Source: an uncultured Rhizobium sp. (GTDB lineage: Bacteria; Pseudomonadota; Alphaproteobacteria; Rickettsiales; UBA1997). From it: a stretch of DNA of 64,000 nt. The DNA lies in the NCBI GenBank assembly GCA_964506725.1, contig CAZDLU010000008.1, forward strand, positions 73-64,072, written 5' to 3'. This document shows, in pieces, positions 8,169 to 61,010 of the stretch; within the stretch, counting starts at the first letter, position 1; each line of letters opens with the position of its first letter. The translations under genes and the position numbers were made by a program. The notes under the pieces were generated by a model. It made no database searches. It was not told the DNA's origin and saw only the letters and a program-made list of their open reading frames with translations.

Positions 8169-8203
8169 CGATGTCATGCTTCGACAATCTCAGTATGACA
8201 TCG
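8169..8203. repeat. short copy of the gtcatgc...gcatgac palindromic element (family 2)
   Basis: cgatgtcatgcttcgacaatctcagtatgacatcg. Terminal 9-nt inverted arms. The core is related to the copies at 35231, 62912 and 26904. Confidence 0.6.
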
Positions 8204-8222
8204 AAAATGTTTATAATAATTT

Positions 8223-19681: not shown

Positions 19682-19692
19682 AAAACCTCTTT

Positions 19693-19798
19693 AAATTTAG
19701 GAAAGGTACCTGGAACCTTTTTTTATTCTTAAATTTAGGAAAGGTACCTGGAACCTTTTTTATTAGGAAAGGTACCTGGAACCTTTTGGAACCTTTTT
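19693..19798 (+). repeat. three tandem copies of a ~25-30 nt hairpin unit (ttaggaaaggtacctggaacctttt) plus a partial fourth
   Basis: Read directly at about 19693-19722, 19731-19761 and 19762-19786, with a stub ggaacctttttt at 19787-19798. Each unit has an aaaggt/accttt stem followed by a T-run. Confidence 0.8.
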
Positions 19799-21244: not shown

Positions 21245-23680
21245 TCATTTTCTGTTATAGTTTGTTTGGTTAGGTTCATGAATATTTTTATTACAAAAAT
21301 TATCTAACATACTGTAAGTGTGATCATTGAGTTGTGTCGCGATTGCTTTCATTTCTTCAACGAAATCTTCTTTGGATTTACATACCGAAATGAAATCATT
21401 ATTTTTACCAAAATTATTTGTACCAGATGGTTTTGGACCAAAGTATTTACATACAATATGTAAAGCTCCGGGATTCTTGTTCTCAGAATCAGGACCTATA
21501 TTTAAGCCGCGGGTTAAAGTTATTGAATAATTTGGAAAGGCTACTTCTGTTATATCTCGCGAAGCGGTCAAATCAAATATTATACCTAACTTATCATCCC
21601 GGGATTTTTCAGAAGCTAAAGTGGCAGAGCTACGAGTTGGAGCTGAAGTGGGGTGGCCGCCTGCACCTGTAGCTTTATGGCTACTACTTGCGCTTGCAGC
21701 AGCTTCAGAGCTACTACTTGCACTAGTTTTATAACTAGGATCATTAAGTTGGTTTATCGCGGCATCGCAGAATTGTTCTATATCTATGAAAGTATTAGAT
21801 TGATTGCAATTCGTACGATTAATCATTTTCATCATCAAAATTGCAAATTCTAAGTCGCGACGCTCTCCAAGTGGACTGGTTTTTGCCTCCTCAAATTTTT
21901 CCACCATTTCTTGTAAACCTGTTTTAATATAAATTTCTTCTTTCAAAAGATTAATATTTATATCAGCGTCTTCAAATTTAATATTAAATGATCCTCCCGC
22001 CTTGGAAATTAATGGATATAAATTAGCTAGTTTTAAAATTAGCCGTTCTTCGCCTTTATCAAGGGTGCCCACATCAGAGGTTGCAGCCGGTGTTGGAACT
22101 GTGCTATTAGTTACAGCAGCCGATCCACTGAGAATAGACGGAAGTTGTGCACGGCCGGTATCGCATAAGACATCAAGGTCTAGGAAACCCCCATTTATTT
22201 CGGCAAGATCTGCATTTGTACTATTTATTGCTGTTAACATAGTGAGTGCGAATTCTGTTTGTGGATCTGTGCTGGCCGTATTAAAATCTTCTACAATAGC
22301 GCTGTCTGGGTAAGCTGTTTGATTAATAGAAATTTTTCCTTCAGAAAGATTAATCCTTATTAATACAGGTCCAAAAATAACATTAATTGATCCGCCTACC
22401 TCGGAAATTAATTGGTATAAACCTTTTAGTTTTTCGATTTGCTGTGATTCTGCTGTATTATCTGCGGAAGAGTTGGTGGAAAGTGTATGCGCTATATCAT
22501 GTAGTGTTTCTTTGCCTGGTTCTATAGATTTACCAATTACTATGGAAGCCGCACCTTCTTTTTTTGTACTTTCTTCAAACAATTTTTCTAATGCCTCTTT
22601 GCAATTTTCAGGATTAATTAATTTATTATCATATATTAGATATGTAAGATTTTTTGGATTAATTTCCGGACGTGTTTTAGCTTCCTCTGCCATGGCAGCA
22701 ATAAGATTTTTATAGAGTTCCCTACTTCCTAGCGCCATATCCCAATTAATATTTATTGGATATACTATTTTTCCATTAGAAGTAGAAGTTCTTAATTTTA
22801 TATTTCTTACGGAAGAGAGTGTTGAAGTGGGGTGGCCGTCTGCACCTGCAGCTTTATGGCTACTGCTTGCGCTTGCAACAGCTTCAGAGCTACTACTTGC
22901 ACTGGTTTTATAACTAGGATCAATTCGGTTTATTGCATCGCATAACTTGTCTGTATCGATGACTAGATGATATAACCCTTGATCTACGATGTTGGAATTT
23001 GCTTTAGCTATCGCTAAACGCATACCCACCACGAATCTATCTTGAGCATTATCTTTTTTAACATCATCAAATGGTATTAATATAGGAACGTTGTTGCCAG
23101 GTGTTGTAATAAGGATTGTTTCTTTAGAAAGATTGATATCTATTATTGTTCCTTTAAACTCAATTTTAACAGTATCACTATGGCGATTAATGTTATTTTG
23201 ATTAATGTAGTCATATAAATTGCCTAGTTTTAAGGTTTGTTGCAATTCGGATATTTGTCCAGGGGTTAATGAGATTGAAGCGGAAGCGCTTGCTTTTCCA
23301 GAGCCAACAGCCGAAGCTTCACCAGCAGCATCCTTTCTTGCTTGTGGTGATAACAATTTTCTGAAGTCTGGATTAATTACACTTGATAAGGTTTCCCCTC
23401 TTCCATTTTGTAAAGATAGACAGTCAATCTTAGCTTCGTTATAATGTGGAAGTAGGATATGAAGTACATCAATATTGCCAATTTCATTAGCAATGTGAAG
23501 AAGAGTTTGCTTGTCGGACAGCTCGCTTCTGTGGGTTAATAATCTATTGAAAAGATGAGGATAAGAGCGTTTAAAAGAGAGAAGCTCAGCTTTGAAATTT
23601 GTTAAATCAAATAAGTTGTTAGTTAATGAATTAAAAGAAAGTTCTAGAATTTGATTCTCATTACCTTTTTCCGGAAGCAT
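21245..23680 (-). CDS. large modular repeat protein, candidate secreted effector
   Basis: 811 aa. An ankyrin-like segment near the N-terminus (TLLHIANEIGNIDVLHILLPHYN). Three copies of a ~150-aa module (L.LGNLY..I......I.F....ININL..E.I.I...), separated by Ser/Ala-rich linkers. No family recognised. Confidence 0.6.
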   Translation of the reverse strand: MLPEKGNENQILELSFNSLTNNLFDLTNFKAELLSFKRSYPHLFNRLLTHRSELSDKQTLLHIANEIGNIDVLHILLPHYNEAKIDCLSLQNGRGETLSSVINPDFRKLLSPQARKDAAGEASAVGSGKASASASISLTPGQISELQQTLKLGNLYDYINQNNINRHSDTVKIEFKGTIIDINLSKETILITTPGNNVPILIPFDDVKKDNAQDRFVVGMRLAIAKANSNIVDQGLYHLVIDTDKLCDAINRIDPSYKTSASSSSEAVASASSSHKAAGADGHPTSTLSSVRNIKLRTSTSNGKIVYPININWDMALGSRELYKNLIAAMAEEAKTRPEINPKNLTYLIYDNKLINPENCKEALEKLFEESTKKEGAASIVIGKSIEPGKETLHDIAHTLSTNSSADNTAESQQIEKLKGLYQLISEVGGSINVIFGPVLIRINLSEGKISINQTAYPDSAIVEDFNTASTDPQTEFALTMLTAINSTNADLAEINGGFLDLDVLCDTGRAQLPSILSGSAAVTNSTVPTPAATSDVGTLDKGEERLILKLANLYPLISKAGGSFNIKFEDADININLLKEEIYIKTGLQEMVEKFEEAKTSPLGERRDLEFAILMMKMINRTNCNQSNTFIDIEQFCDAAINQLNDPSYKTSASSSSEAAASASSSHKATGAGGHPTSAPTRSSATLASEKSRDDKLGIIFDLTASRDITEVAFPNYSITLTRGLNIGPDSENKNPGALHIVCKYFGPKPSGTNNFGKNNDFISVCKSKEDFVEEMKAIATQLNDHTYSMLDNFCNKNIHEPNQTNYNRK
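21645..21743. repeat. intragenic ~100-bp repeat, copy 1 (encodes DPSYKTSASSSSEAAASASSSHKATGAGGHPTS)
   Basis: Near-identical at the DNA level to 22824..22922 (gaagtggggtggccg.ctgcacctg.agctttatggctact.cttgcgcttgca.cagcttcagagctactacttgcact.gttttataactaggatca). Confidence 0.85.
22824..22922. repeat. intragenic ~100-bp repeat, copy 2
   Basis: See copy 1. A handful of substitutions over ~100 bp inside the same ORF. Confidence 0.85.
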
Positions 23681-23949
23681 TTTGAATTAGAATTTAAGTT
23701 AAGAAAAATTTGAAGAGTTTTATGTAGATGAGTTAACACCTAATTAAATAAAATAATAAAGTCAATATATAAAATAACCCTTTTTTTGTTGACAATCTCA
23801 CAGAAATTTTTAACTTAATTTTTGTCACAATTTCACTACTTGCTTTCTTGAATTTAAAAGAAGCACAGCCACCAATTTTCATCACATCTCACCAAATTTT
23901 CTCGCCACTTTCATCACGAAATTTGTTAAAGTTTTAAGTTTTTTGGTGA

Positions 23950-26889
23950 ATGGAAAAATTGCTGCCTCACGATTTATTTATTCAATCGCCATTTTGGAAA
24001 TCGCATCTTGAAAGTTTGTCTCATCCTGTCGCCGTGAGGATGGCGCAGGATTTGGAAATTGCTTCGCCGCTTGGAATTGGTGATGCTAACAAAATTTTTT
24101 GGAAAGGTTTCAAGCATAATTTTGGCGCTGCTGATTCCAATATTGATTTTCTTTTTCGCATCAAAAAAAAGCATCCGCAAAAAATTGTTTTAATTCAAAT
24201 CGGCGAATTTTACGAAACTTGGGGCATTGATTCGGTTTTTTTAGTTGAGCATTGCGGCATAAATAGAATGGGGCGCAAAGGCCCGCGTGCCGGGATGCCG
24301 CTTGCCAATATCCAAAGTGTTTTGGATGATTTAACGGCGGCCGGATTTTCAATTGTAGTTTGCGAGCAGGCTGACGATATTCACAAAAAAGGTCGCAAAA
24401 TAAGATTCATTTCTGAAATCATAACTCCTTCCTCACCTACTTACACCTATGGCTTGGCCATGAGTCATAAAGCAAATATTGTCTTTCCGGAAGCACCGCC
24501 AGAATTTGGTTTGGCTGCAAATAGCAAAGGAATAAAGTTGGTTGAAATTAATCCTGACTTAAGAACTTCGCTCATCTTGGAAGGCTTGACGGAAGAGGCG
24601 GCGCTTATTCGTTTAAACAAATATAGCGGACGTTTAAATCGAATTTTTTTGCATGAAAAATTACCGCAAACTTTATTTGATGCCGCTAATTTCAAATTTC
24701 ACAATTTAGTAAAAATTTCCGGCTATTCTTTGCGCGCTTTTGCCAAGCGCATGGAAGAATTAATAAAAATTGATTTGGATTTAGATGCTAATATTGAATT
24801 TTTAAAAACAGAAAATTTAGGTGAAGAAAATGCGCCGAAAGCTCTCTATCAGCATACCGCCGAGCAAATCGGAATTTTGCCGAAAAGCGGAATTCCGGAT
24901 TTAGTGCAATTAATGTTGCCGAAATCAAGCCCCGCAACTTGCAAATATATTGTGCGAAATTTGTTGTTAAGTCCCGCGCCAAAAAAATATGCCGATTGTT
25001 TAAGGCAAGCAATTATTGAATTGCAGTCAAGTGATAAAAAGCTGCCAACCCTTCTAGTGTCTAATCCGGTGAGATATATAAAAACTTTAAATAAAAATGA
25101 AGCCCATCCCGAAATTTTAAAAGATTTATTTTCTTTGGCGGAAATTTTTCTAACTTGCCAAAAAAATTTTTCGCCGAATTTTATTAAAAATATTTTAGAA
25201 AATGTTTCTTATATTTCTGCGATAAGAACGGAAGAAAAAATTTTGCGTCAAACCGGTAAAAAAATAATTGAACTGCTTGCAGAAATTTTACCCAAAGAAG
25301 AAGATTTTTCGTACACACCAAAAAACGAATTAGTTCCACACACGCTATTTGAGCGGCTTGAAGAGGAGTTTCGCGGCAGGATTTCTAAAAATTCTAATGC
25401 AGAAATTTTTTCGCTTTATGAAAAAATTCATGAGTCGGCCAAAAAATATGAAGAAGCTTTAGTAAAAAATTTAATTCCGATTATTGCAGAAGAAGGCAAG
25501 TCAAAAAGAGTGGCGCTTTCTTACGATATGCATAATGAAGCGATTTGGTTGATTGGCAATGTGAATGCCAAGCACCAATTGATTCGACCCCTTGATCGTT
25601 ATGGCAAAGAAGTTAAGGATCGCTGGAGTACTAAGGAAGTTGAAGAGGCTTTGAGCGAATATAAAGCGGATGTTTTAAAAATTTTTGAAGCGATAAAAAA
25701 AGTTTTGAAACAGGCATCGAAGGATCTTGCGCCTTACTGCATGCCGATAATTCATTTGGCGACTTTTTCTAATTTGACGAAGACGCTTTATCTTCACATT
25801 AAAGAATGTCAGGTAAAAAATTGGACGGCGAATTTTATTAGTGAAGGTGAAAATAAAATCGCGCTGACAGATTTTTTTCCTTATTGGATAAAGGCGGGCG
25901 AGGCGGTAGCAAATTCATTTGCTTTTGACGGCACTTGTTTGTTGACGGGCCACAATATGGCGGGCAAATCAACTTTGATAAGATCGCTTGCAGCCGCGAC
26001 TTTGCTTGGTTCGTGTGGCTTTATGTTTCCGGCAAAAAAAATTGTTGTCGGGCAAGAAATTGATGGTTGGTATGTGAGAACCGGTGCGGGAGATGATCCC
26101 GAGGCCGGTCTTTCGGCCTTTGCCGTTGAAATGACAGATGTGAAAATTGCGCTTCGCGATGCGACTAATAAAAGTTTTTTACTAATTGACGAACTTGGCA
26201 AAGGCACGGAATCAAAGGCCGGACACGCCATTGCGGCGAGTGTTTTGGAATATTTGGCGAAGAAAAATATCAGGTCAATTTTTGCAACGCACTGGCATGA
26301 AATTTTTGTAAATAAGGCGGTTGATTTAAAAAATATTCGCTTGATAAAAATGTTGTGTGACGCAGATGTTGCAACTTACAAAGTTGTTGACGGAGTTGAT
26401 TTAAATTCTTCGGCATTTTATACGGCAACTCAAGTAGGAGTTGATGCTGAGATTGTTGCAAGAGCCGAAGAAATTGCTAAAAGTTACGAACATTTTGTTG
26501 ATGGAAATTCCCAAAATCTTTCCAAAAAAATTCCTGATCTAAAAGAAATTTTAGCCGAAATAACGACAAGCGAAATTGCAAAAATCAAAACCCTAAACGA
26601 AAACGAAACTCCGCCGTTAAACGATATCGGTCACAGCATAGTTTATATTTTGCGCACCAAAAATAATTTCCACTACGCCGGCGAAACTGATAATTTTTTG
26701 CACCGCGTGGTGGCGCATCGCGCCAACAATAATTGCGAATTTATCTACGCCCAAATCCCCCAAGGCAAAAGCCACGCGCGCCAGTTGGAGCAGAGGTTGA
26801 TTACAAGATTGAAGAATAGCGGATTCGCTATGATTTCGATTGAGGATGCGGGAAATTTGAGTTTTGGTATAGCTCTGAAGGCAAAATAA
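23950..26889 (+). CDS. MSH1-like DNA mismatch repair protein: MutS domains fused to a C-terminal GIY-YIG endonuclease domain
   Basis: 979 aa. MutS domain I (IQIGEFYETWGIDSVFLVEHCG), Walker A (LLTGHNMAGKST), Walker B (LLIDELGKGT), STHW-like ATHWHE, and a C-terminal GIY-YIG-like module (VYILRTKNNFHYAGETDNFLHRVVAHR...GKSHARQLEQRLITRLKNSGF). Collinear with plant MSH1 as I recall it. Confidence 0.85.
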   Translation: MEKLLPHDLFIQSPFWKSHLESLSHPVAVRMAQDLEIASPLGIGDANKIFWKGFKHNFGAADSNIDFLFRIKKKHPQKIVLIQIGEFYETWGIDSVFLVEHCGINRMGRKGPRAGMPLANIQSVLDDLTAAGFSIVVCEQADDIHKKGRKIRFISEIITPSSPTYTYGLAMSHKANIVFPEAPPEFGLAANSKGIKLVEINPDLRTSLILEGLTEEAALIRLNKYSGRLNRIFLHEKLPQTLFDAANFKFHNLVKISGYSLRAFAKRMEELIKIDLDLDANIEFLKTENLGEENAPKALYQHTAEQIGILPKSGIPDLVQLMLPKSSPATCKYIVRNLLLSPAPKKYADCLRQAIIELQSSDKKLPTLLVSNPVRYIKTLNKNEAHPEILKDLFSLAEIFLTCQKNFSPNFIKNILENVSYISAIRTEEKILRQTGKKIIELLAEILPKEEDFSYTPKNELVPHTLFERLEEEFRGRISKNSNAEIFSLYEKIHESAKKYEEALVKNLIPIIAEEGKSKRVALSYDMHNEAIWLIGNVNAKHQLIRPLDRYGKEVKDRWSTKEVEEALSEYKADVLKIFEAIKKVLKQASKDLAPYCMPIIHLATFSNLTKTLYLHIKECQVKNWTANFISEGENKIALTDFFPYWIKAGEAVANSFAFDGTCLLTGHNMAGKSTLIRSLAAATLLGSCGFMFPAKKIVVGQEIDGWYVRTGAGDDPEAGLSAFAVEMTDVKIALRDATNKSFLLIDELGKGTESKAGHAIAASVLEYLAKKNIRSIFATHWHEIFVNKAVDLKNIRLIKMLCDADVATYKVVDGVDLNSSAFYTATQVGVDAEIVARAEEIAKSYEHFVDGNSQNLSKKIPDLKEILAEITTSEIAKIKTLNENETPPLNDIGHSIVYILRTKNNFHYAGETDNFLHRVVAHRANNNCEFIYAQIPQGKSHARQLEQRLITRLKNSGFAMISIEDAGNLSFGIALKAK

Positions 26890-26903
26890 TTTCTTGATGC
26901 ATA

Positions 26904-26980
26904 ACTCACGGTTAACTGAGCCAGTCGAAGGATGTTTAGATTTCGAATTCAAACATATCCTTCGATAGCTCAGGGTGACT
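26904..26980. repeat. diverged family-2 palindromic element, probable bidirectional terminator
   Basis: Between convergent genes. ...ctgagccagtcgaaggatg...catatccttcgatagctcag... forms an imperfect long hairpin related to ctgagcctgtcgaagcat / atgcttcgacaggctcag. Confidence 0.55.
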
Positions 26981-27028
26981 TTTGAGTTTTATGTTTTATC
27001 TAAAACAAAAAAGACGGTCGAAATATTT

Positions 27029-30000
27029 TTAATCAAATTGTGTTCTGACGCCTTGAGCTTTACCCGCAGAAGCAGCAGCGGCATCGGTAACTGCAATTAC
27101 AGTAGGTGGATTTTGTTTTGCTTGGTCAATTATTAGTTGTGCTAAGGCTGAGGATAAGATTTCATTATCTTCGCAATTGGTTTTGATTGATATATCATCG
27201 TCATTCTCGCTCATAACATCTATTTCAAATTTATCAGGAGGTAATAATTTTTGAAGTTTTGTTAATGTTTCTTTACTGCTTTCAATAAAAAATTTTCCTT
27301 CATATAGCATAGCAGTAATATTTGGAGAAGTGCTTAACTGCGAGGACCCACCACTTTCTTTTAAGATACGTAGCTTAGAATTAATTTCTTGATTAATTAA
27401 ATCTTTATGCTGCTTATCAATAATGATGTCTGTTAATTTTGATGATAAGGTTTTTATGGTTGCTTCATCAGTATAAACTGACTTGATATCTGACTCTACT
27501 ATAACGGTAAAGTTTTTTTCCGTTTTATTTTTTAATATTTCAATTTCATAGTCCGGAATACTTAAACTTTCTTTTTCTGTTGCTTGAAGATTTTCAATCA
27601 ATGATAAAAGATGATTAGCTGTAACGGCCTTTGCTAGAGCTAAAGATAGAAATTTAATGTTTTCCGGAGTTACGTGTTCTTGTTTTATAAAATAAATTCC
27701 ATCTTTATTCTCTAGTCCAAATTCTCTATCATTGTTAAGCTTTCTCAATGTTGTAACAAGAGTATCTTCGATTTGCGGAGGGCATGTAATAATTAAATTA
27801 GAAGCATCATCTAAACATAAACAAAAAAGCCCGGATGAATGTCTAACGTCATCTCTTTTTCTATTCAAAAGATCATTAATTGCTTCTTTAATTTCAATTG
27901 CATTAATAGGTTGATATGTTGGAAAGTCTGAATTAGTAAATCCTGGTATGGTATCTACTAAAAAAGCTCCGGAGCCGCCGGCAGCAGCTATCACGGGCTG
28001 TGGCGCGGCAGTCGCCGAAGCCTTTCCGTCAGAACTTTCGCCGGTTGAATGAATCTCTTCTGCTAAGAGAAATCCAGGATTTTTTAAATTAAAATAATTC
28101 CGCATCATGCCGCATAAGTTTTTTACGACTTCTTTTTCTGCGTCATTTTTTCCTAATTCTGATTCTAAAGTTTTTAATATATTGCCAAATTCCGGTAGGA
28201 ATTTTCTATCTTCAAAAATAATATTCATCGTGCTCATTAGTGATGACACGGATCTTATATAAGCGTTGTCTTTATCTTGTGGACTTGCATTTTGAATAAG
28301 AGTCAATCGCGCTTCGAGAGAAATTCTAAGACTTCTTATTTCGCTACTTTTCATTATTGTCGGTGACACAAGAGACCTTGACGCAGAAGCGGCTGCGGCA
28401 GCATCTGTTCTGCTTTTTGCACTTTCTTCATGAAAAATAGCGGCGACTTCTTGGCTATTTTTCATTTTAGAAAGTTCATCAATATATTTTAGAGCGGCAT
28501 CGCATAAAAATGATCTTCCTTCCGTTGCCGGATTTGAATCGCGATATTTAATTATATGACTGCGAGCATCTTTATAATTGCCACCCAAACTTGAAATAAC
28601 GTGCTGTGTCAGCTCTTGTACTTTTAAAGAAAATTCTATGCAGGCCGGCGCTAAGTGTTGGTTAAAAGTTTCATATTTTTTGATTCTTTCTAGAGTAGTA
28701 CTTACTGTTGTTTCTAATTTATCAATAAAGCGTTCTAGGTCTTTTACGTTATCATTTCTTGAATCTATCGCATCATCATATTTCGATTCAGTTGCTTCAC
28801 CTCCTGATCCAGCTTTGGCAGAAGCGGCTTCTGTAGGTGCGCCAGGAAGTTTTGATTTATCTTTAAAAGTTTCAAGATATTCCAAAGCCAAACCGCACAA
28901 AGCTACTCTTCCGCCGGTTTTTTCGCTTGTTCTTAAATAATCATCAATTACATAATCGCAGAATTCTCGACCACATTCCTGACCTTTATTATAGGTTTCA
29001 AAAAGATGCCGCATCCTACTTTCTAATTCTGCAAAAATTCTTTTACATTCATCGGCATCTTCACCTATATATTCATTAGTTCTATCCGGATTTCTTCCTA
29101 GCTTTGTTAAAAAATCATATACGGTTTTTTCTGATTTATTAATGAATTGTTTAAGCTCTTCTGCGGCAGTTATATAAGGTACCGGTTTTTTGTCGTCGGT
29201 AGGCGTTTCAACTCGAGTTAGATTCCAAAAGTGAGATTGTTTAAAAGGTGATGAATCTGCGGAAGCTGCCCCTGCGCCTGTTGCGGCATAATGAAAATCA
29301 TAGGAATAAAGTGGTACGCAGAATCGTTGCGCTGTGTCAAATGGAGTATATGCTGAATAATCTTTTTCTTTTTCTAAATCCTTATAGTCATATATCATTT
29401 TTTTTACATCATAGTTATCGTCTTCTAATATTTCTAACATTTCTCCCAATGTTTCTTTAAAAACTTTTCTATAACGAGCGCCATATCCATTATTTATTGC
29501 TATGTCTTGCGGAGTTTTGCCTTCTCTATTCTTGTTATTAAAAACTTCATAAGCTTTTCCTTCTTGGTGACGCTCAATAAAAACATGATTAACATCCGGG
29601 CATGGGACTTCAGCCGCTAAATGAGCAAGAGAATTTCCGTTATGGTCTGTGGTTTTTAATAACTTATTTAATTTTTCACTATCATCTTCTCCTCTATAAA
29701 AAGGAGAACGAACAACACCATCCCAAATATTATGAATATTTTGAAAATCTTCTAAAGACATCTCTGATAGCTTATACCGATTGAGTCCATTTTTTAATTT
29801 TAGGAAGTCGTTTACTATTGTTTTATTTTCTTGATATTCTTTGCCATACCCCGATTCAATTGCAATTTCTTCTGCGTCTTTATTATCGGCATTTTTCCTT
29901 GCAAGAAATTCAGAAGCTTGCGGAACCGCTAAATAGCTATGAAGAACAACATTATTAATATCGGAAGATTCAATGCGAGCTGCAAGATGAGCAAGGGTAT

Positions 30001-31384
30001 TACCGTCTTCGTCTATAAAACCCAATAATTCCCGCAATCTTTCTTCTCCATTTATTCCACCACGTGCGGATATAGTTTCATCGGTATAATGAGGAAGGTT
30101 TATGATATGATAAAAAACTTCTTTAAATTGCTGTAAATCTTGCGGCGTTTTAGTTGATGCGGAATAAGTAGTAATCACGTCCTTTAATCTATGGAAATCA
30201 TCGGCTACAAATTCGTAATTACCGATACTTGCAATAGCACTTGCTGGATTGAAAGGTCGATCATACGCATCAATTTCGTCTTTAGTTATTTCAGCTTCAA
30301 CCTCTGTTATTGCTTGAACCAGCGTTTCAATATAATCTCTGGTGATATATAGCGATCCATTTTCAATAAGAGCAGAGTTTGTAAATGCATCATTAGTTTC
30401 TTCTAACTTCTTACATTTGGCAAAAATCTTTTCTCTAATTAGCGGATGACAGCTAATTCCAAGAAAATGACTATAATTAATTGCGGCAAGTTGTTGTTGG
30501 TGCTTGAAAGGTATTAAAACATACTCCTCTAAATCAAGATTTTTAAGTAGCTCGCATGTTTGACTAGCTTTGGGTGAGAGTGATGAAGATACAGCACCGG
30601 CTCTGGCTTTTCCATCGCTTCCGCTTGTTACGGCCGCTGTCGCTTCTGTAATTCCCAAGATGAAGTTATTTTTCTCTAAAGCTTGCGGAAAAATATGTGC
30701 AACACTTCTAAAAAAATCTGTAAAATCATTCGGGCTTGTTTTTTTAAGTTCTCCCGTAACTCTATCTCTATCTACTACGGCCGGAGATACTGAATAAGAA
30801 TCTCCGTTATTTTCTAATTTTATTCCGCAGAAATTGCTGTCATTGCTTTCAAGGGTATCTGAATTGTGTAAACTTTTTTTACCTTCCTTTTGGATTCTAA
30901 TTAAATATTTATCTTTGGTGTGATTTTCTATAAGGTTCCAATTAATTCCGGGATTTTCTCCTTTGCTTTCCATTTCTCTTAGACGAATAAAACAATGAAG
31001 CAAAATTTCTTCCTGATTACTACAATTATCGATGTCTTTATATTTTGAGAGATTTTCAGCCAATCTATCACTTGCTCTTCTATCTTCTTCAAGCTTTTTT
31101 TGTTTTTCAGCATCATCAAATAATGGTGGAAACACTCCATCATTATTCCTTCTTTGCACTAAATGCATTGTAGTAACTGTCCCTATGTCATTATAAGTCT
31201 CAGTGGTTATATCTCTGCCGCGATCTATAAGCCTTGTATTAGAAATGCCGATTCTTCTTAGATCATCAAGAAAATCGCTTATTGTAAAGCCTGGTTCAAA
31301 AATTACCGGTATCCTTAATGTTGAGCCATCAAGAGTTCTGGTTAGTGCATATTTTTTTCCAAGAAGAAGGGAATTGTTGGGCAT
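27029..31384 (-). CDS. giant ankyrin-repeat-containing modular protein, candidate effector
   Basis: 1451 aa. Two clear ankyrin-type units (DEDGNTLAHLAARIESSDIN...; DHNGNSLAHLAAEVPCPDVN...KNREGKTPQDIAINNGY). Internally duplicated helical modules. Ser/Ala/Gly-rich linkers like those in 21245..23680. The N-terminal ~80 aa look ubiquitin-like. Confidence 0.7.
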   Translation of the reverse strand: MPNNSLLLGKKYALTRTLDGSTLRIPVIFEPGFTISDFLDDLRRIGISNTRLIDRGRDITTETYNDIGTVTTMHLVQRRNNDGVFPPLFDDAEKQKKLEEDRRASDRLAENLSKYKDIDNCSNQEEILLHCFIRLREMESKGENPGINWNLIENHTKDKYLIRIQKEGKKSLHNSDTLESNDSNFCGIKLENNGDSYSVSPAVVDRDRVTGELKKTSPNDFTDFFRSVAHIFPQALEKNNFILGITEATAAVTSGSDGKARAGAVSSSLSPKASQTCELLKNLDLEEYVLIPFKHQQQLAAINYSHFLGISCHPLIREKIFAKCKKLEETNDAFTNSALIENGSLYITRDYIETLVQAITEVEAEITKDEIDAYDRPFNPASAIASIGNYEFVADDFHRLKDVITTYSASTKTPQDLQQFKEVFYHIINLPHYTDETISARGGINGEERLRELLGFIDEDGNTLAHLAARIESSDINNVVLHSYLAVPQASEFLARKNADNKDAEEIAIESGYGKEYQENKTIVNDFLKLKNGLNRYKLSEMSLEDFQNIHNIWDGVVRSPFYRGEDDSEKLNKLLKTTDHNGNSLAHLAAEVPCPDVNHVFIERHQEGKAYEVFNNKNREGKTPQDIAINNGYGARYRKVFKETLGEMLEILEDDNYDVKKMIYDYKDLEKEKDYSAYTPFDTAQRFCVPLYSYDFHYAATGAGAASADSSPFKQSHFWNLTRVETPTDDKKPVPYITAAEELKQFINKSEKTVYDFLTKLGRNPDRTNEYIGEDADECKRIFAELESRMRHLFETYNKGQECGREFCDYVIDDYLRTSEKTGGRVALCGLALEYLETFKDKSKLPGAPTEAASAKAGSGGEATESKYDDAIDSRNDNVKDLERFIDKLETTVSTTLERIKKYETFNQHLAPACIEFSLKVQELTQHVISSLGGNYKDARSHIIKYRDSNPATEGRSFLCDAALKYIDELSKMKNSQEVAAIFHEESAKSRTDAAAAASASRSLVSPTIMKSSEIRSLRISLEARLTLIQNASPQDKDNAYIRSVSSLMSTMNIIFEDRKFLPEFGNILKTLESELGKNDAEKEVVKNLCGMMRNYFNLKNPGFLLAEEIHSTGESSDGKASATAAPQPVIAAAGGSGAFLVDTIPGFTNSDFPTYQPINAIEIKEAINDLLNRKRDDVRHSSGLFCLCLDDASNLIITCPPQIEDTLVTTLRKLNNDREFGLENKDGIYFIKQEHVTPENIKFLSLALAKAVTANHLLSLIENLQATEKESLSIPDYEIEILKNKTEKNFTVIVESDIKSVYTDEATIKTLSSKLTDIIIDKQHKDLINQEINSKLRILKESGGSSQLSTSPNITAMLYEGKFFIESSKETLTKLQKLLPPDKFEIDVMSENDDDISIKTNCEDNEILSSALAQLIIDQAKQNPPTVIAVTDAAAASAGKAQGVRTQFD

Positions 31385-33326: not shown

Positions 33327-33354
33327 AAATTAAGCTAAATTTTTCTTGATCTTG

Positions 33355-33473
33355 TCATCCTTTCCTTGAGGGATGATCGGTTAACGAAGTGAGCCGAGGA
33401 GGGGATAATTTCCGAGTAAAACCCCTCCTCGAAGCTGTTGCACAGCTTCGATCCTCCCTCAAGGGGAGGATGA
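33355..33473. repeat. RPE-like palindromic element (family 1), intergenic copy
   Basis: 119 bp: tcatcctttccttgagggatgatcgg...gaggagggg...cccctcctcgaagctgttgcacagcttcgatcctccctcaaggggaggatga. Same architecture as the copies at 37423, 40729 and 41780. Confidence 0.85.
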
Positions 33474-33503
33474 TAAGATCGAGGAAACTAATTAAACACA
33501 AAA

Positions 33504-33546: not shown

Positions 33547-35212
33547 AAAAATTTTCTTTAATTTTGGCTTTTGCATAATTAAAAACTTCTGTCGCAGAAA
33601 TTTTTGGTGGCATGAAAAGTTCGTCCGGATCAATCATAACATTTACGATGAAAGGTAATTCGCTGCTGAAAGCCTCGTCCAACGCTGCTTGCAAATATTT
33701 TTCCTCGCGCACCAAAATTCCATCACCGCCGCAAATTTTGGCAAACTCGGCAAAATCACAATTGCGCATGTCGGTTTCATAATCAGGCACGCCGGCTTTT
33801 CCTTCTTGTTCGAGCGTGATTAAACCAAGTTTGGAATTGTTAAAAATGATTATGACAATTTTTAAATTATGTTTTACCGCCGTAATAAAATCAGTCATCA
33901 ACATCGAAAATCCGCCGTCTCCGGTGACGCATATTATTTGTTTGTCAGGATATAAAAGTTTGGCGCCGATAGACGCGCCAAGGCTGAAAGCCATGGTGGC
34001 GAGCGAGCCTGATAAAATATAACGCTGTCCTTTTTTCATTTGTAAATAGCGCGCGTTCCACGCTGTCACAAGTCCGGTGTCAGAAATTATAATCGCATTT
34101 TTATCAGCCGTTTCGCCGATGAGATAAGCCAAGCGCTGTGGTTTTATCGGGTTTGATTTGTTGTTAACGTCTCTTGCAACTTCATTTTGCCAATCACTTT
34201 TATGTTGCTTTATTAGCTGTAAAAAATCTTGATTTGGTTTTTCTTTTATCAAAGGCAGAAGTTGATTGAGAATTATTTTAGCGTCTCCGGCAAGTGCTAC
34301 GTCTAGCGGAATTCTGCGGCCTAAGTGATGCGGATTAATGTCAATTTGAATGGCTTTTTTTTGTGCCGGTAAAAAATCAAAATAAGGAAAATCAGTTCCG
34401 ATCAACATTATCAAATCACAATCTTCCAAGGCTTTGGCACTAGGTTTTACGCCAAGCGCGCCAATTCCGCCAATTGACAAAGGATGATTTTCTAAAAATA
34501 ATTCCTTGCCTTTTAAAGCGTGAACAATCGGCGCGGACAAACGCTTCGCCAGTTCAAATACTTCGTCAACTGCATCATAACAACCAATGCCGCCGACTAT
34601 TACAATTTTGTCGTGATTGTTTAGTAAATCTGTTGCGGCTTTAATGGAATTGGCATTCGCGAGAGTTCCAATTTTTGGCGTTGGTGTAAATTTCCATTTA
34701 TCGGGATTCGGCACTTTTTGACTGGCAATATCAACCGGAATATTTAAATGCGCCACACCGCGATGAGTGAGAGCGGCCTTGATTGCTTGCAGTGCTGCGT
34801 AAGGAAATTGTTCAGCGTTGGTGATGACTTGGTTATAAATGGCCACATCGCTAAATAATTTATGCAGATCAACTTCTTGATGATAATTGCTGCCGATAAA
34901 GCGAGTTTCAACTTGTCCGGTAATGGCGAGCATCGGCGCAAAATCAGCTTTCGCATCATATAAACCGTTGAGAAGATGTATAGCGCCGGGGCCCGCCGTT
35001 CCACAACAAACTCCCAAGTTTCCGCTTAACTTTGCTTGGGCAGAAGCCGCAAAAGCGCCGTTTTCTTCGTGATTCACGTGGACGAATTTTATTTTATCTT
35101 GAAGGCGAATGGCTTCGGTTAGGGCATTGATAGCATCTCCCGGCACACCGAATATTTGGCGCACGCCGGTATCGCTGAGTAATTTTATTAGAACGTCGCA
35201 TACTGTGCTCAT
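33545..35212 (-). CDS. poxB: pyruvate oxidase / pyruvate dehydrogenase (quinone)-like TPP enzyme
   Basis: Collinear with E. coli PoxB as recalled (GVRQIFGVPGD, HEENGAFAASAQAKLSG, GDGGFSMLM, IIFNNSKLG, C-terminal membrane-binding tail). I chose the start at MSTVCDV (35212). The ORF extends to 35248, but those 12 codons lie inside a palindromic element. Confidence 0.8.
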   Translation of the reverse strand: MSTVCDVLIKLLSDTGVRQIFGVPGDAINALTEAIRLQDKIKFVHVNHEENGAFAASAQAKLSGNLGVCCGTAGPGAIHLLNGLYDAKADFAPMLAITGQVETRFIGSNYHQEVDLHKLFSDVAIYNQVITNAEQFPYAALQAIKAALTHRGVAHLNIPVDIASQKVPNPDKWKFTPTPKIGTLANANSIKAATDLLNNHDKIVIVGGIGCYDAVDEVFELAKRLSAPIVHALKGKELFLENHPLSIGGIGALGVKPSAKALEDCDLIMLIGTDFPYFDFLPAQKKAIQIDINPHHLGRRIPLDVALAGDAKIILNQLLPLIKEKPNQDFLQLIKQHKSDWQNEVARDVNNKSNPIKPQRLAYLIGETADKNAIIISDTGLVTAWNARYLQMKKGQRYILSGSLATMAFSLGASIGAKLLYPDKQIICVTGDGGFSMLMTDFITAVKHNLKIVIIIFNNSKLGLITLEQEGKAGVPDYETDMRNCDFAEFAKICGGDGILVREEKYLQAALDEAFSSELPFIVNVMIDPDELFMPPKISATEVFNYAKAKIKENF

Positions 35213-35230
35213 AAATATTTTGTATTTATT

Positions 35231-35329
35231 AAAACCATTCATAGTCATGCTGAGCCTGTCGAAGCATATGTCTCAAGCTCGGAGCGCACCACATGCTTCG
35301 ACAGGCTCAGCATGACTATTAATGGTTTT
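35231..35329. repeat. family-2 palindromic element, full copy
   Basis: aaaaccattcatagtcatgctgagcctgtcgaagcat (35231-35267) and its near-perfect reverse complement atgcttcgacaggctcagcatgactattaatggtttt (35293-35329). Confidence 0.85.
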
Positions 35330-35431
35330 AAATAATTAAATTTTTTGATCTAAATCCATGAGTTCTATTCAAGTTTAAAGTTGAATAAAAAATCAGTTCT
35401 AAAAAATTTGCTAAATATAAAGGAGACATAA

Positions 35432-36262: not shown

Positions 36263-36430
36263 TCTTGAATACAGGCTCTAGAAGACCAAAAAGATCAGGA
36301 GTTCCTACCATTAAATAGGTGCCAGGTACCTTTTTATATTTTTTGCTATATTGAAATAAATTTTTAAATTATTACGTTAGAAAAATTGCATCCACTCAAA
36401 CTCATCCATTTTCAATTTAATTCTTTAAAT

Positions 36431-37288
36431 ATGATTCTAAAAATTATCAAAAATTCTGCGTTAGCATTAGCGCTAAGTGCAGGTGTGGCCTTTGCTGCAG
36501 ATGATGTAAAAATCACTGAAAGCGTAACTTTTCATTACGATAAATATCCGCCAAGCGCCTATAGCAAAGAAGTGGCGGTTGTTAATTGGAACAGTCAAGA
36601 AGGAATTGAAAGATTTAATCGCAGCGAATTTAAAGGCGATTTTTTCCGTTTGGCTCATCATTACGCGCCGCAGCCAAATCCGGTAGCCTGCGGACAAGCA
36701 GCGGCCACAATAGTTTTGGGCGCAATTTATGAATTAAATAAAACGCCGTTCCCGCTTGTTGAAGAATGGCCGGTGGCAATTGGCGATAAAAAATATCCGC
36801 TGCAATATCGCTTATTTAACGAAGGAAATTTTTTCAATGAAGCAACTGATAAAATTTTAAACAGAAAAACAATTTACATGAAAATGACCAAAGCTGACGG
36901 CACGTTCGGCGGCGGCGTTGATATTGATGAATTGCAAGCAATGCTTAAAGTTCACGGTGTAAAATCGAAATTGGTTTTTGCTGATAAATATGATGATGAA
37001 AAACTTGCAGAGTTTAGAAAGTTAGTTAAGGAAGTTGTAAATTCTGACAAAAAGTTTTTGATTTTGAATTACGATCATTCATACAAGAACCTTATGGGTG
37101 GCCATTTCTCGCCGGTTGCGGCCTATGATGAAAAATCTGATTCGGTTTTAATGTTAGATGTTGCAGCACACAGAAATCCTTGGATTTGGATTAATCTAAG
37201 CGACATTTATCACGCGATGAATACTAAAAATTATGCCGGAACTAATTATCGCGGTTATTTGATTATTGATAGTAAGTTGCGGAAGTAA
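36431..37288 (+). CDS. secreted phytochelatin-synthase-like (NsPCS-type papain-fold) protein
   Basis: Start at ATG 36431 (MILKIIKNSALALALSAGVAFA signal peptide); the track ORF starts at an upstream TTG. Catalytic Cys context ACGQAAATIVLGAI. GGHFSPVAAYDEKSDSVLMLDVA and IWINLSDIYHAMNT closely parallel Nostoc NsPCS as recalled. Confidence 0.8.
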   Translation: MILKIIKNSALALALSAGVAFAADDVKITESVTFHYDKYPPSAYSKEVAVVNWNSQEGIERFNRSEFKGDFFRLAHHYAPQPNPVACGQAAATIVLGAIYELNKTPFPLVEEWPVAIGDKKYPLQYRLFNEGNFFNEATDKILNRKTIYMKMTKADGTFGGGVDIDELQAMLKVHGVKSKLVFADKYDDEKLAEFRKLVKEVVNSDKKFLILNYDHSYKNLMGGHFSPVAAYDEKSDSVLMLDVAAHRNPWIWINLSDIYHAMNTKNYAGTNYRGYLIIDSKLRK

Positions 37289-37332
37289 TTATTAAAAAGT
37301 AGCTTGGCCCCTTTTCCAAAAACTCGATCTAT

Positions 37333-37385
37333 TCATCCTCTCCTTGAGGGAGGATCGAAGCTACGCCATTAGCTTCGAGGAGGGG
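37333..37385. repeat. RPE-like element (family 1), partial copy
   Basis: tcatcctctccttgagggaggatcgaagctacgccattagcttcgaggagggg. This is the left terminus and central stems only. Confidence 0.75.
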
Positions 37386-37422
37386 CTGCGATGTAGAATA
37401 CAAATAATTTTTCTCACAATAA

Positions 37423-37538
37423 TTATCCTCCCCTTGAGGGAGGATCGAAGAGCGAAGCGATTCGAGGAGGGGTTTATCTGTGAGACGACCCCTCCTCGAA
37501 GCTGTTGTACAGCTTTGATCCTCCCAAGGGGAGAATAA
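37423..37538. repeat. RPE-like element (family 1), full intergenic copy
   Basis: 116 bp: ttatcctccccttgagggaggatcgaagagcgaagcgattcgaggagggg...cccctcctcgaagctgttgtacagctttgatcctcccaaggggagaataa. Confidence 0.85.
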
Positions 37539-38680: not shown

Positions 38681-38695
38681 ATAATTTTTCTCGCA

Positions 38696-38714
38696 CTCCC
38701 CTTGAGGGAGGATG
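38696..38714. repeat. terminal fragment of the RPE-like element in the cyoA-cyoB spacer
   Basis: ctccccttgagggaggatg matches the element terminus and contains the first in-frame ATG (38712) of the cyoB ORF. Confidence 0.6.
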
Positions 38715-40694: not shown

Positions 40695-41449
40695 GCAAAA
40701 TTATTTCAATTGAATTTCCACGATTTTCTTATCCTCCCTTTGAGAGAGGATCGAAGAGCGCAGCGATTCGAGGAGGGGTTAATCTCGGAGATCAACCCCT
40801 CCTCGAAACTGCTTACACAGCTTCGATCCTCCCTCAAGGGGAGGATGAAAACCAGCAAGATTTTGAAAAAACACATAATGACGATCACGGCGATGAAAGC
40901 AGAACCGTGCTTGGTTTTTGGATTTATCTAATGACTGACTGCATATTATTCGCCACTTTATTTGCGGTATTTGCCGTGCTAAGAAATAATTTTTTCGGTG
41001 GTCCAACCGGTAAAGAAATATTTGAATTATCTTATGTGTTAATTGAAACAATTTTACTTTTAATTAGCAGCGTAACTTACGGAATGGCGATGCTGGCTTT
41101 TTTTAAACGCGCCAAAAAACAAGTTATTTTTTGGCTGTTGATTACTTTTTTATGCGGCTTGATTTTTGTTTTGATGGAAATAAATGAATTTCATCATTTG
41201 ATTGCAGAAGGCCACGGACCCAGTAAAAGCGCCTTTCTATCAAGCTTTTTTACTTTAGTTGCAACTCATGGTTTGCACGTTACTTTCGGTTTAATTTGGA
41301 TGATCGTTATGATAATTCAGATTTTGCAAAGTCATGAATTTGATACGGTTCTTCGCAAACGCTTGACTTGCCTCAGTTTGTTTTGGCACTTTCTTGATAT
41401 TATCTGGATAGGAGTTTTTACCTTCGTTTATTTAATGGGAGTAATATGA
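40691..41449 (+). CDS. cyoC: cytochrome o ubiquinol oxidase subunit III carrying an in-frame 40-codon palindromic-element insertion
   Basis: 252 aa versus ~204 in E. coli. Conserved core from [14 protein letters not shown] to [21 protein letters not shown]. The start ATG overlaps the cyoB stop (ATGA) and is preceded by aggagg. Residues ~14-53 are encoded by the 120-bp element. Confidence 0.88.
40729..40848. repeat. RPE-like element (family 1) inserted in frame in cyoC
   Basis: 120 bp: ttatcctccctttgagagaggatcgaagagcgcagcgattcgaggaggggttaatctcggagatcaacccctcctcgaaactgcttacacagcttcgatcctccctcaaggggaggatga. No stop codon in the cyoC frame. Confidence 0.88.
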
Positions 41450-41754: not shown

Positions 41755-41779
41755 ATTTATTTAAAGAAGACTTTGTTTT

Positions 41780-41899
41780 TTATCCTCCCCTTGAGGGAGG
41801 ATCGAAGAGCACAGCGATTCGAGGAGGGGTGTGTCTCGGAGGTTAACTCCTCCTCGAAGCTGTTGGCACAGCTTCGATCCTCACTCAAGGGGAGGATAA
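41780..41899. repeat. RPE-like element (family 1) in the cyoD-cyoE spacer
   Basis: 120 bp: ttatcctccccttgagggaggatcgaagagcacagcgattcgaggagggg...ctcctcctcgaagctgttggcacagcttcgatcctcactcaaggggaggataa. Confidence 0.88.
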
Positions 41900-41928
41900 A
41901 ATATCGGGGCTTATTACGAAACTTTCCC

Positions 41929-45559: not shown

Positions 45560-46100
45560 TGACTAGAAATTCTCTAAATCTCCATTTCACGTTCACCGAA
45601 TTTTGATCACTAATATCAAGGCTTTACACAGTACGATTACAAAAAAATCTCCAATTTTCTCCGCTTTCCTGAGCAAAAAAAACAAATTTTCCAGCAATTG
45701 AAAATTCTCTGAGAAGTTTGCAAAAAGGTTCACCCGCTATGCAGTTATGTTTTCGAACTTTTTTGAGTAGAAGTGACCTAAAGCCAGTATTTACCGATGC
45801 GTACCGTTTTTAAAAAGGTGAACGTGAAGCAAAAAAATAGGGGTAAAAAATGGTAAAATTGAGGGGATTTTGAGAGAAAAATTTAATTTTTCTAACTCAC
45901 GGTGAACATCGATGCAGCTTTGATTTGTAAGGGTTTGTGAGGCTAAAATAGATGAAAAAAAGTAGTGGCGGGGCAGCTGATACAATTTGCGAACCATTCT
46001 CCAATCGTGGAAACCCTTGATTTTATTAGCTTCTCATGCGTACCGAAAAGTTAGAGAAAAATCATCTGGGTGCGGTTGATATAACCTGCGAACTTTTTGC
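45560..46100 (+). repeat. island boundary repeat, copy B (extended ~540-bp unit)
   Basis: Left part atctccatttcacgttcaccgaattttgatcac...; core with ggtgaacgtgaag and tggcgg-ggcagctgatacaatttgcgaacc (45966-45995); right part ...gggtgcggttgatataacctgcgaact. Collinear with copy C. Confidence 0.75.
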
Positions 46101-50454: not shown

Positions 50455-51040
50455 AAAATCTAAATAATCTCCAAATCTCCGTTTCATGTACACCGAATTT
50501 TGATCAGCAAAATCAAGGCCTCACATAATATTATTCGTAAAAAATTCTCTGATTTTCTTTATTTCAAAAACATTTCAGCTACACAGTCAGCCCCTCAAAC
50601 AAAAGTTCGCAGGTTATATCAACTGCCACCACTTTGAGAAGTTCGATGAAAAAGCTACGAGACCAGTATTTATCGATGTGTACCTTTTTCACGCGGTAAA
50701 CGTGAAACGGAGAAATGGAGACAAAAATTGCTGAAAAATTGCAAAATTTTGGAAATTTTTCGGGGAGTTTTTGAGCGGAAGGTAAACGTGAAATGTAAGT
50801 CGTAAAATCTGCGGAGCGTTGCCAATAAAGGCGGGATCAGGCGCGTTGAGAATTTTTAAAAATTTACTCGGAGATTTTGGTTCGCAAAAAAAGTAGTGGC
50901 GGTGGATGGGGGTTAGTTTGCTAAATTGGTCGCACTTTTTTGGAATCAGTAAAATCAAGGTTTCAAAGCCATTTTCATCCATACCGAAAAGTTCGATAAA
51001 AATCAGATGCTTTCACCTCAACCACTTTGCGAAACTTCGT
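50455..51040 (+). repeat. island boundary repeat, copy C (extended ~585-bp unit)
   Basis: Left part atctccgtttcatgtacaccgaattttgatcagc...; core gaagttcgatgaaaaa...ccagtatttatcgatgtgtacc...ggtaaacgtgaaac...ggtaaacgtgaaatg...ggttcgcaaaaaaagtag-tggcgg-tggatggggg (50897-); right part ...accgaaaagttcgataaaaatcag.... Confidence 0.75.
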
Positions 51041-57144: not shown

Positions 57145-57145
57145 A

Positions 57146-59502: not shown

Positions 59503-59588
59503 TGAAATTTTTAGCGACTTTTTGCTAAAAATCCGTCTAAAATATTTCCGCTAAGGAAATAATTTTTATTAACAAAACTTTTAAAATT

Positions 59589-61007: not shown

Positions 61008-61010
61008 AAA

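Follow-up and report, generated by a model that had tools for sequence, protein, structure and literature searches.

A gene that probably encodes a functional bacterial MutS protein of the plant-type MSH1 subfamily, with a biochemistry that would parallel that of the plant enzyme by homology, is located on contig CAZDLU010000008.1 of assembly GCA_964506725.1. It lies in a 64-kb window, by which we mean the whole stretch of 64,000 nucleotides that was analysed. The open reading frame (ORF) occupies positions 23950..26889 (+), where the sequence-only reading of this DNA had placed it. It runs uninterrupted from ATG to stop and codes for 979 amino acid residues (aa) plus the stop codon. The gene is complete and monocistronic, has full-length homologs and is collinear with angiosperm MSH1. 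In plants, MSH1 alone is given credit for the exceptionally low mutation rates of organelle genomes and for the suppression of their repeat recombination. The gene of the window greatly widens the known bacterial distribution of this family and, in this chromosome with its many repeats, it is probably a factor for genome stability.

The sequence-only reading had proposed that the protein is of the MSH1 type and not an ordinary MutS1 or MutS2. Domain content, collinearity with angiosperm and green-algal proteins, profile scores, a neighbor-joining (NJ) tree, predicted fold and conserved residues all bear this out. MSH1 proteins of Viridiplantae for the comparison were obtained by an exhaustive profile search together with name look-ups. 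The comparison set includes proteins from the angiosperm Victoria cruziana (P0319, a bona fide MSH1 of 1163 aa), Heliosperma, the green algae [Myrmecia] bisecta, Trebouxia, Mesostigma, Tetraselmis and Caulerpa, and an apicomplexan, as well as a protein named 'mitochondrial-targeted muts 1' from the green alga Chlorella sorokiniana. In BLASTP, the window protein is collinear with Victoria MSH1 over residues 15-842 (about 830 aa, 28% identity, E 4e-96). The nuclease domain, at residues 882-975, aligns as a further block (35% identity, E 2e-11), and a similarity of this degree is well outside what chance would produce. The window peptides quoted in the sequence-only reading are all found in the translation: IQIGEFYETWGIDSVFLVEHCG, RKIRFIS...SSPTYTYGL, GLTEEAALIRL, TAEQIGILPKSGIPDLVQLMLP, LLTGHNMAGKST, LLIDELGKGT, VYILRTKNNFHYAGETDNFLHRVVAHR, GKSHARQLEQRLITRLKNSGF and NLSFG. 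The strings with which they had been compared are those given for Arabidopsis MSH1. At the aligned positions, Victoria MSH1 has near-identical strings, namely VGDFYEALGFDACILVEYAG, GLTEEAVVTKL, ATQVGVLPTEGIPSLINVLFP, VYAVIRPDRKIYIGQTDDLAGRVRAHR, GKSLACQLETLLINQL and HRNFG.

Comparison with the other MutS families gave a different result. The BLASTP alignment to canonical MutS1 is limited to domain V (189 aa) and domain I (102 aa), and the same two domains are the extent of the alignment to the Taq and Escherichia coli (E. coli) MutS sequences in the PDB. On a eukaryote-only MSH1 profile the window protein reaches 766 bits, as compared with 153 bits on a MutS1 profile; in the reciprocal test, Victoria MSH1 scores 584 bits on the profile of the bacterial family. 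The NCBIfam models for MutS1 are matched partially and far under their cutoffs (NF003810, 183 versus 480 bits; TIGR01070, 171 versus 642 bits), and so is the MutS2 model TIGR01069 (119 versus 400 bits). Canonical MutS1 of E. coli and Taq has its overall fold, the Phe-x-Glu motif of domain I and the motifs of domain V in common with the window protein, which, unlike MutS1, bears a nuclease of its own. MutS2 is also composed of a MutS ATPase and a C-terminal nuclease, but it ends in an Smr domain and has no domain I, whereas the window protein has domain I and no match to Smr. MutS7, which is a separate MutS subfamily (PMC12292046), is built along analogous lines, its MutS body carrying a C-terminal nuclease of its own, but this nuclease is of the HNH type, for which the window protein has no match. 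The best structural match among viral proteins is the MutS7 of Tetraselmis virus 1, with a template modeling (TM) score of 0.55, and the identity to viral MutS7 is 12-14%. MutS7 occurs in octocoral mitochondria, giant viruses and Epsilonproteobacteria. The following features of the MSH1 subfamily are present in the window protein: a GIY-YIG domain, domain I with Phe-x-Glu, the domain V ATPase, full-length collinearity and the placement in the NJ tree. The two outcomes that had been named as contradicting the assignment, a C-terminus unlike GIY-YIG and a nesting within MutS1 or MutS2, were not observed.

The order of the parts is identical to that of plant MSH1 (Arabidopsis CHM/MSH1, AT3G24320, compared via Victoria P0319 and the green-algal proteins P0127 and P0281). 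There is an N-terminal region, a domain I with Phe-x-Glu, an MSH1-specific middle, domain V and a C-terminal GIY-YIG domain, and the plant protein has all catalytic residues of the window protein. Pfam searches of the kind the sequence-only reading had proposed recovered MutS_I, MutS_V and GIY-YIG. The N-terminal region, aa 1-66 (23950..24147, +), which precedes domain I, has nearly invariant alignment columns, includes the motif FWKGFKH and has no extension that resembles a transit peptide. Residues 80-124 of Victoria MSH1 match residues 15-66 of the window protein, and the plant protein therefore has about 65 extra N-terminal residues. An organelle targeting extension is thus missing from the window protein, as expected because the protein is bacterial, and this has no bearing on subfamily membership. 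Domain I, aa 67-162 (24148..24435, +; Pfam MutS_I, E 1e-13), aligns to residues 22-120 of Taq MutS, and its GEFYE motif, with F87 and E89, stands opposite the GDFYE of Taq, the mismatch-binding Phe-x-Glu motif. The middle region, aa 163-663 (24436..25938, +), is predicted to have a MutS-like connector/lever/clamp fold with a sequence that is specific to MSH1. Pfam MutS_II, III and IV have no match anywhere in the 979-aa protein, and BLASTP finds no similarity of the middle region to canonical MutS1, whereas the region does align to plant MSH1. Domain V, the ABC-type ATPase at aa 664-845 (25939..26484, +), is recognised by Pfam MutS_V (E 3e-38) and by MutS matches in the PDB. Its motifs are the Walker A sequence GHNMAGKST, the form of the bacterial clade (GPN..GKS in plant MSH1), then SAFAVEM, the Walker B sequence DELGKGT, and THWHE. 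A short and poorly conserved linker, aa 846-895 (26485..26634, +), connects the ATPase to the nuclease. Between the alignment blocks it measures about 40 aa, versus about 115 aa in plant MSH1. The GIY-YIG nuclease domain, aa 896-975 (26635..26874, +), is C-terminal and is supported by Pfam, a family profile and the structure model.

The C-terminal domain, for which a GIY-YIG nuclease had been claimed, is indeed GIY-YIG as judged by profile and model. The Pfam GIY-YIG match at residues 897-955 is marginal for a single sequence (E 4e-4; 21.0 bits versus a gathering score of 22.6). The same model is matched by 12 of 13 diverse family members, with a best E of 1.8e-7. A profile made from the last 115 residues of 17 family members was searched against the PDB. 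The six best of its seven matches are GIY-YIG proteins, among them the UPF0213 protein BH0048 (1zg2, E 9e-5), T4 endonuclease II (2wsh), the catalytic domain of I-TevI (1mk0) and Slx1, and the seventh is weak (E 0.77). The assignment is secure despite the marginal Pfam score because of the matches across the family and those of the profile in the PDB. The profile alignments place Y899, Y909-x-G911, R919 and H923 at the GIY, YIG, Arg and His positions, and the nuclease residues also include E947 and D966. In the AlphaFold model, residues 896-956 have the β-β-α-β-α order that is expected of GIY-YIG.

Residue conservation was examined in an alignment of 75 full-length members of the bacterial family and 27 eukaryotic or deep-branching members (n = 102). 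Eight residues of the MutS body are invariant in all 102 sequences: F87 and E89 of the mismatch-stacking Phe-x-Glu, the Walker A lysine K673, S722 and E727 of the signature, D747 and E748 of Walker B, and H781. In the nuclease domain, Y899, G911, R919 and H923 are likewise invariant, and Y909 (101/102), D966 (101/102) and E947 (100/102) are nearly so. Such conservation is the mark of an enzyme that selection maintains for binding mismatches, hydrolysing ATP and cleaving DNA. The AlphaFold model of the whole protein has a mean predicted local distance difference test (pLDDT) value of 78.7, with low values in the linker at residues 848-859. It can be overlaid on the full-length MutS of Taq and of E. 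coli along about 850 alignment columns, with a TM score of 0.56 by query and 0.70 by target. The superposition extends over the whole of MutS, which suggests that the middle 500 residues keep the connector/lever/clamp architecture in spite of a sequence that is specific to MSH1 and invisible to Pfam.

The protein would form a MutS-like clamp. Its domain I would recognise mismatches or imperfect heteroduplex DNA through Phe87-x-Glu89, and the ABC ATPase of domain V would drive a conformational switch. Instead of a recruitment of MutL and MutH, the tethered GIY-YIG nuclease would then cut near the lesion or in a mismatched recombination joint. The break would be repaired from another copy of the chromosome by RecA-dependent homologous recombination. 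The net effect would be fewer point mutations and a rejection of recombination between diverged repeats. Since the residues for mismatch recognition, for the ATPase cycle and for GIY-YIG catalysis are all conserved, the protein most likely serves to cut DNA with its own nuclease when triggered by a mismatch or heteroduplex, with recombinational repair to follow, and/or to reject homeologous recombination. The plant enzyme is the precedent. In a 2026 preprint, recombinant Arabidopsis MSH1 is reported to recognise U:G mismatches in vitro and to cut the two strands in a coordinated way at a distance of about 12-15 nt, which results in double-strand breaks with 3' overhangs of 2-3 nt (bioRxiv 10.64898/2026.06.10.731485). 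Furthermore, plant msh1 mutants have a very large rise in organelle point mutations (PMC12225983) and increased repeat-mediated rearrangements (PMC12292046).

Several points weigh against this function. Every biochemical step would be carried over by homology from Arabidopsis MSH1, at 28-35% identity as compared via Victoria, and the identity to plant MSH1 over the main block is only 28%. The shorter linker between the ATPase and the nuclease could alter the geometry of cutting. The repair of double-strand breaks by recombination requires a second genome copy in the host. There is no canonical mutS or mutL within the 64-kb window, and across 13 related loci no conserved operon partner was found, an MFS transporter alone recurring nearby (5 loci).

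The same protein may instead have anti-recombination, and not the repair of replication errors, as its main job. It would then cleave or abort D-loops and heteroduplex joints between diverged dispersed repeats and so keep the chromosome stable. We regard this as a real possibility, although clearly the less probable one. The palindromic repeats that the sequence-only reading had noticed in the window are real. There are at least two dispersed families, with 5 and 9 copies versus 0 expected, and one copy is located 27 nt past the MSH1 stop codon, so that substrates for ectopic recombination exist. Moreover, plant MSH1 suppresses short-repeat recombination and the recombinant protein acts on recombination intermediates, as cited in PMC12292046. 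This role is compatible with mismatch-triggered cleavage and does not exclude it. Against its being the main one, the Phe-x-Glu mismatch motif is strictly conserved, and point mutations are also gained in plant msh1 mutants (PMC12225983). A further view is that the protein is a mismatch sensor in conventional MutL-dependent repair, with the GIY-YIG domain acting as a single-strand nickase that replaces MutH or the MutL endonuclease and makes no double-strand break. The MutS-like fold does span the whole MutS body including the connector, and the connector region of E. coli MutS contacts MutL; many GIY-YIG enzymes, such as UvrC, are also nickases. Nevertheless, the connector/lever/clamp sequence is unrelated to that of MutS1, the gene has no mutL next to it in this window or at 12 related loci, and the sole biochemical precedent, Arabidopsis MSH1, is reported to make double incisions, all of which make a MutL-dependent role unlikely.

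It is more improbable still that the gene serves in conflict or defence or is part of a mobile element, either cutting invading DNA in imperfect heteroduplexes or being a selfish nuclease fusion. GIY-YIG domains are common in homing endonucleases, the window has a defence island about 20 kb off (Avs2, AbiE, Type III methyltransferase), and more distant MSH1-type genes adjoin a divergent dnaB/dnaE module, in one case close to TraG and Mrr. On the other side, the PADLOC defence models gave only weak matches to the window protein at the level of the P-loop (mad8, E 1.4e-6, with no significant stretch), and the gene is outside that island. Its neighbours, though variable, are of the housekeeping kind, its composition is native and its divergence parallels that of housekeeping genes, and the fusion is fixed across the family rather than sporadic. 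An artefact, in the form of eukaryotic (host or algal) DNA misassembled into a bacterial contig or of a MutS1 or MutS2 with a chance resemblance at its C-terminus, would find its one argument in the unusual taxonomic distribution. It is refuted, with hardly any probability left to it. The ORF is intact and has no N-terminal extension, both flanks carry bacterial genes of the same composition, about 78 close relatives are on independent bacterial contigs, including the genomes of 13 GTDB species, and the MutS1 and MutS2 models score far below threshold.

The MSH1 gene is native to the bacterial chromosome, with a composition like that of its host and with housekeeping neighbours. Its GC content is 0.388 and its GC content at third codon positions is 0.356, compared with 0.385 and 0.345 for the ICDH gene of the window. 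A word-indexed search returned about 78 clusters of relatives (at 90% identity), full- or near-full-length and 45-76% identical, followed by one eukaryotic protein at 27% and then by canonical MutS1 at 19% coverage. The relatives are mostly from bacterial metagenome-assembled genomes (MAGs) labelled Rickettsiales or Alphaproteobacteria, on independent contigs of up to 6.9 Mb. Among their labels are 'Rickettsiales bacterium', 'Pseudomonadota/Proteobacteria bacterium', an 'Elusimicrobia' MAG and the cultured gammaproteobacterium Agarilytica rhodophyticola (48%). A scan of GTDB species gave 13 loci. Eleven of these, at 67-75%, are in Rickettsiales, Alphaproteobacteria or mislabelled 'Rhizobium' MAGs, and the other two are in a 'Chromatiales' MAG (50%) and in Candidatus Endobugula sertula (43%). 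In the latter and in one Rickettsiales MAG, the MSH1-type gene is split into two overlapping or adjacent ORFs (L013, 9965-13019, and L012, 10091-13004, respectively), which indicates a frameshift, due to either a pseudogene or an assembly error. Apart from the MFS transporter, synteny around MSH1 is poor among the 13 loci.

The tree was built by NJ from Kimura-corrected distances over 909 trimmed columns, with 100 bootstraps and MutS1 as the outgroup, and it contains no viral sequences. A branch of 1.17 substitutions per site parts the MSH1-type sequences from MutS1. The bacterial family, which includes Agarilytica (Cellvibrionaceae), has 100% bootstrap support. Within it, the alphaproteobacterial subgroup of the window protein, also supported at 100%, is sister to the Agarilytica group; nodes deeper than the bacterial clade have 50-64% support or less and are not interpreted. 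The 'MutS-related protein' of Agarilytica (P0072) belongs to the same bacterial clade and has 48% identity to the window protein over 99% of its length. It is of the same length class and has the same motifs, including FWKGFKH and DELGKGTE. The window protein differs from this Cellvibrionaceae type in that it belongs to the separate subgroup, which comprises at least 60 clusters at 90% identity, all from MAGs with the labels Rickettsiales, Alphaproteobacteria or Pseudomonadota.

MSH1 was apparently inherited vertically within the alphaproteobacterial lineage. In keeping with this, its divergence roughly tracks that of ICDH and of the neighbouring MFS transporter: the identities to relatives are 64-75% for MSH1, 74-87% for ICDH and 65-69% for the transporter (four MSH1 loci). 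The best matches of the ICDH are in uncultured Alphaproteobacteria or Rickettsiales MAGs, and no cultured or host-associated relative was returned among them. The sequence-only reading had placed the gene in a Rickettsiales-like endosymbiont. The Rickettsiales part stands by the labels of the MAG submitters only, and the endosymbiont part has weak support. A gene content with a cyo oxidase, copper and arsenic resistance, rml genes, Avs2 and AbiE is unlike that of a strongly reduced endosymbiont.

Previously, plant-like MSH1 with a GIY-YIG domain has been reported from stramenopiles, alveolates, haptophytes and cryptomonads, and also from two species of Cellvibrionaceae, one further gammaproteobacterium and some environmental viruses (Wu et al. 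2020, bioRxiv 10.1101/2020.02.13.947598). Bacterial MSH1 in Gammaproteobacteria of the family Cellvibrionaceae was also reported in 2024 (Plant Cell, PMC12292046). The sequence-only reading, which had remarked on sporadic homologues outside plants, was right about a bacterial copy in this DNA, but such copies were already published from Cellvibrionaceae in both of these sources. Full-text searches for MSH1 in combination with Rickettsiales or Alphaproteobacteria brought up no account of such a plant-type protein in Alphaproteobacteria, and the alphaproteobacterial clade appears to be large and undescribed in the literature searched. Since the family and its presence in bacteria are published, the gene of the window is not a new kind of system, and what appears to be new is the breadth of the family's distribution.

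Giant viruses are currently the favoured donors of MSH1 to plants. Tentatively, we raise the alternative that MSH1-type proteins are ancestrally prokaryotic and that a broad bacterial reservoir, rather than giant viruses, gave MSH1 to green plants and other eukaryotes; the balance of probability is against it. The proposed reservoir would consist of the alphaproteobacterial clade, its gammaproteobacterial relatives and deeper lineages linked to dnaB and a giant dnaE. At E<=1e-30, 3813 proteins matched in the exhaustive profile search, and among the 150 representative clusters listed all have E<=6e-91 and many are full-length. Four of the sampled MSH1-type lineages have prokaryote-type neighbourhoods: P0125 (L014), P0128 (L015), P0185 (L017) and P0149. 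In L014 (213-12371), L015 (1583-13066) and L017 (192-11183), which are mutually divergent contigs, the MSH1-type gene has MutS_I, MutS_V and GIY-YIG and is immediately downstream of a DnaB-like helicase gene and a giant dnaE-like gene. The latter encodes 1902-2095 aa of a highly divergent protein that resembles the Pol III alpha subunit and has large unassigned insertions. In L014, genes for TraG-like and Mrr proteins are also near the MSH1-type gene. The arrangement suggests a replication-coupled, possibly mobile, MSH1 module. The neighbours of P0149 are genes for Lon, a secretin, Vsr and MazE. The contigs of P0122 and P0193 are too short to be classed as prokaryotic or eukaryotic. The GIY-YIG domain is kept in P0125, P0149, P0185 and P0193. 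Short members of the eukaryote-type branch that have no N-terminal extension, P0153, P0169 and P0187, are in eukaryotic contexts, with Ribosomal_L13e, P4-ATPase, MA3, WD40 and DnaJ-X genes as neighbours. The NJ tree parts the sampled lineages with a prokaryotic context, except P0193, from the eukaryotic ones, with a support of just 50-64%.

Viral copies were sought in IMG/VR and BFVD. The bacterial-family profile gave no confirmed MSH1-type match in the viral contigs of IMG/VR. The eukaryote-type profile gave no MSH1-type gene there either: one locus (L019) is an ordinary MutS1, with 960 bits on the MutS1 profile, and the rest are ATPase-only proteins of MutS7/8-like type. The fold search of BFVD returned giant-virus proteins of the MutS7/8 type only, at 12-14% identity, and no viral MSH1-type protein. 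The published viral copies were not recovered in these searches, and viruses are missing from the tree. A denser sampling of prokaryotic MSH1 could allow a phylogenetic test of a bacterial versus a viral origin. If the prokaryotic origin holds, the bacterial enzyme would be a tractable system for nuclease-coupled mismatch surveillance. For biochemistry and structure determination, bacterial orthologs, which are free of introns and transit peptides, may be easier to express than the plant protein.

The MSH1 gene diverges from an 811-aa ORF on its upstream side and converges on a 1451-aa ORF, with 139 nt between, on its downstream side. The AT-rich intergenic spacer of 269 bp at 23681..23949, the presumed promoter region, separates the start of MSH1 from the start of the minus-strand 811-aa ORF. 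Promoter-like matches in the spacer (e.g. 23733-23762) are not more frequent than in shuffled sequence, and no specific promoter is claimed. A scan for promoter and terminator consensus sequences around the gene likewise gave nothing above the shuffled background, the downstream hairpin alone standing out. This long, imperfect hairpin, which is followed by a U-rich tract, is located at 26895..26998 between MSH1 and the 1451-aa ORF, whose stop codons face each other. Its fold has an energy of -39.1 kcal/mol (z -4.15), and none of 200 shuffled sequences was as stable. The hairpin is likely a bidirectional terminator and/or a repeat element, and it holds the dispersed palindromic repeat core CTGAGCCAGTCGAAG at 26916-26930.

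The palindromic family with the core CTGAGCCNGTCGAAG, of which the five copies in the window are exact, forms intergenic hairpins at 8171-8212, 26916-26930, 35211-35349 and 62912-62994. The nine copies of the other family, with the core ATCCTCCCCTTGAGGGAGGAT, are around the cyo operon at 33351-33476, 37323-37525, 38693-38713, 40725-40850 and 41776-41901. Two of the ATCCTCCCCTTGAGGGAGGAT copies fall within the 5' ends that were called for cyoC and cyoE, and the matches to the respective families begin only at about residues 59-72 and 53. These 5' ends are either mis-called starts or in-frame insertions like the Rickettsia palindromic elements.

The two flanking giant ORFs, of 811 aa at 21245-23680 (-) and of 1451 aa at 27029-31384 (-), have linkers rich in Ala and Ser and internal repeats, and the former contains two copies of a 100-nt repeat, 95% identical, at 21644 and 22823. 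The sequence-only reading had described them as eukaryote-like repeat proteins, a description that finds little backing. Neither has a significant Pfam domain in a low-stringency rescan, in which the 811-aa ORF had a sub-threshold ankyrin match (E 0.03). Both ORFs may encode secreted or effector-like proteins specific to this lineage. Other genes in the window are lnt, the ICDH gene of the alphaproteobacterial type (TIGR02924), mscS, rmlA, rmlB and argB, genes for Nramp and MFS transporters and for glutamate-synthase-like and thiamine pyrophosphate enzymes, cyoABC and cyoE, copA, a multicopper oxidase gene, acr3, arsC and gcvT.

The defence island includes an Avs2-type antiviral STAND NTPase of 1397 aa (46188-50381; PADLOC, 1181 bits). 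Its gene is bracketed by direct repeats (45563-45648 with 50460-50545, and 46031-46064 with 50972-51005) and by an inverted pair (46067-46097 with 50601-50631), an arrangement that resembles an insertion cassette. An AbiEi/AbiEii toxin-antitoxin or abortive-infection pair is at 51251-52869, then comes a small ORF with a weak PDC-S09 match and, after it, a Type III-like DNA methyltransferase (53736-55163), for which the restriction subunit was not identified. A metal-resistance cluster at 55135-61487 comprises a CopA P-type ATPase, a CopA-type multicopper oxidase, the Acr3 arsenite efflux protein and the ArsC arsenate reductase. The window also encodes a phytochelatin-synthase-like protein at 36386-37288 (+) (Pfam PF05023, E 3e-35), from a family best known from plants and other eukaryotes. 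Finally, there are two intergenic tandem arrays. The array at 19691-19789, upstream of an AHSA1-like gene, has 3 copies of a 33-nt unit, and that at 59711-59823, after a 246-aa ORF, has 3 copies of a 29-nt unit, 42 nt apart.

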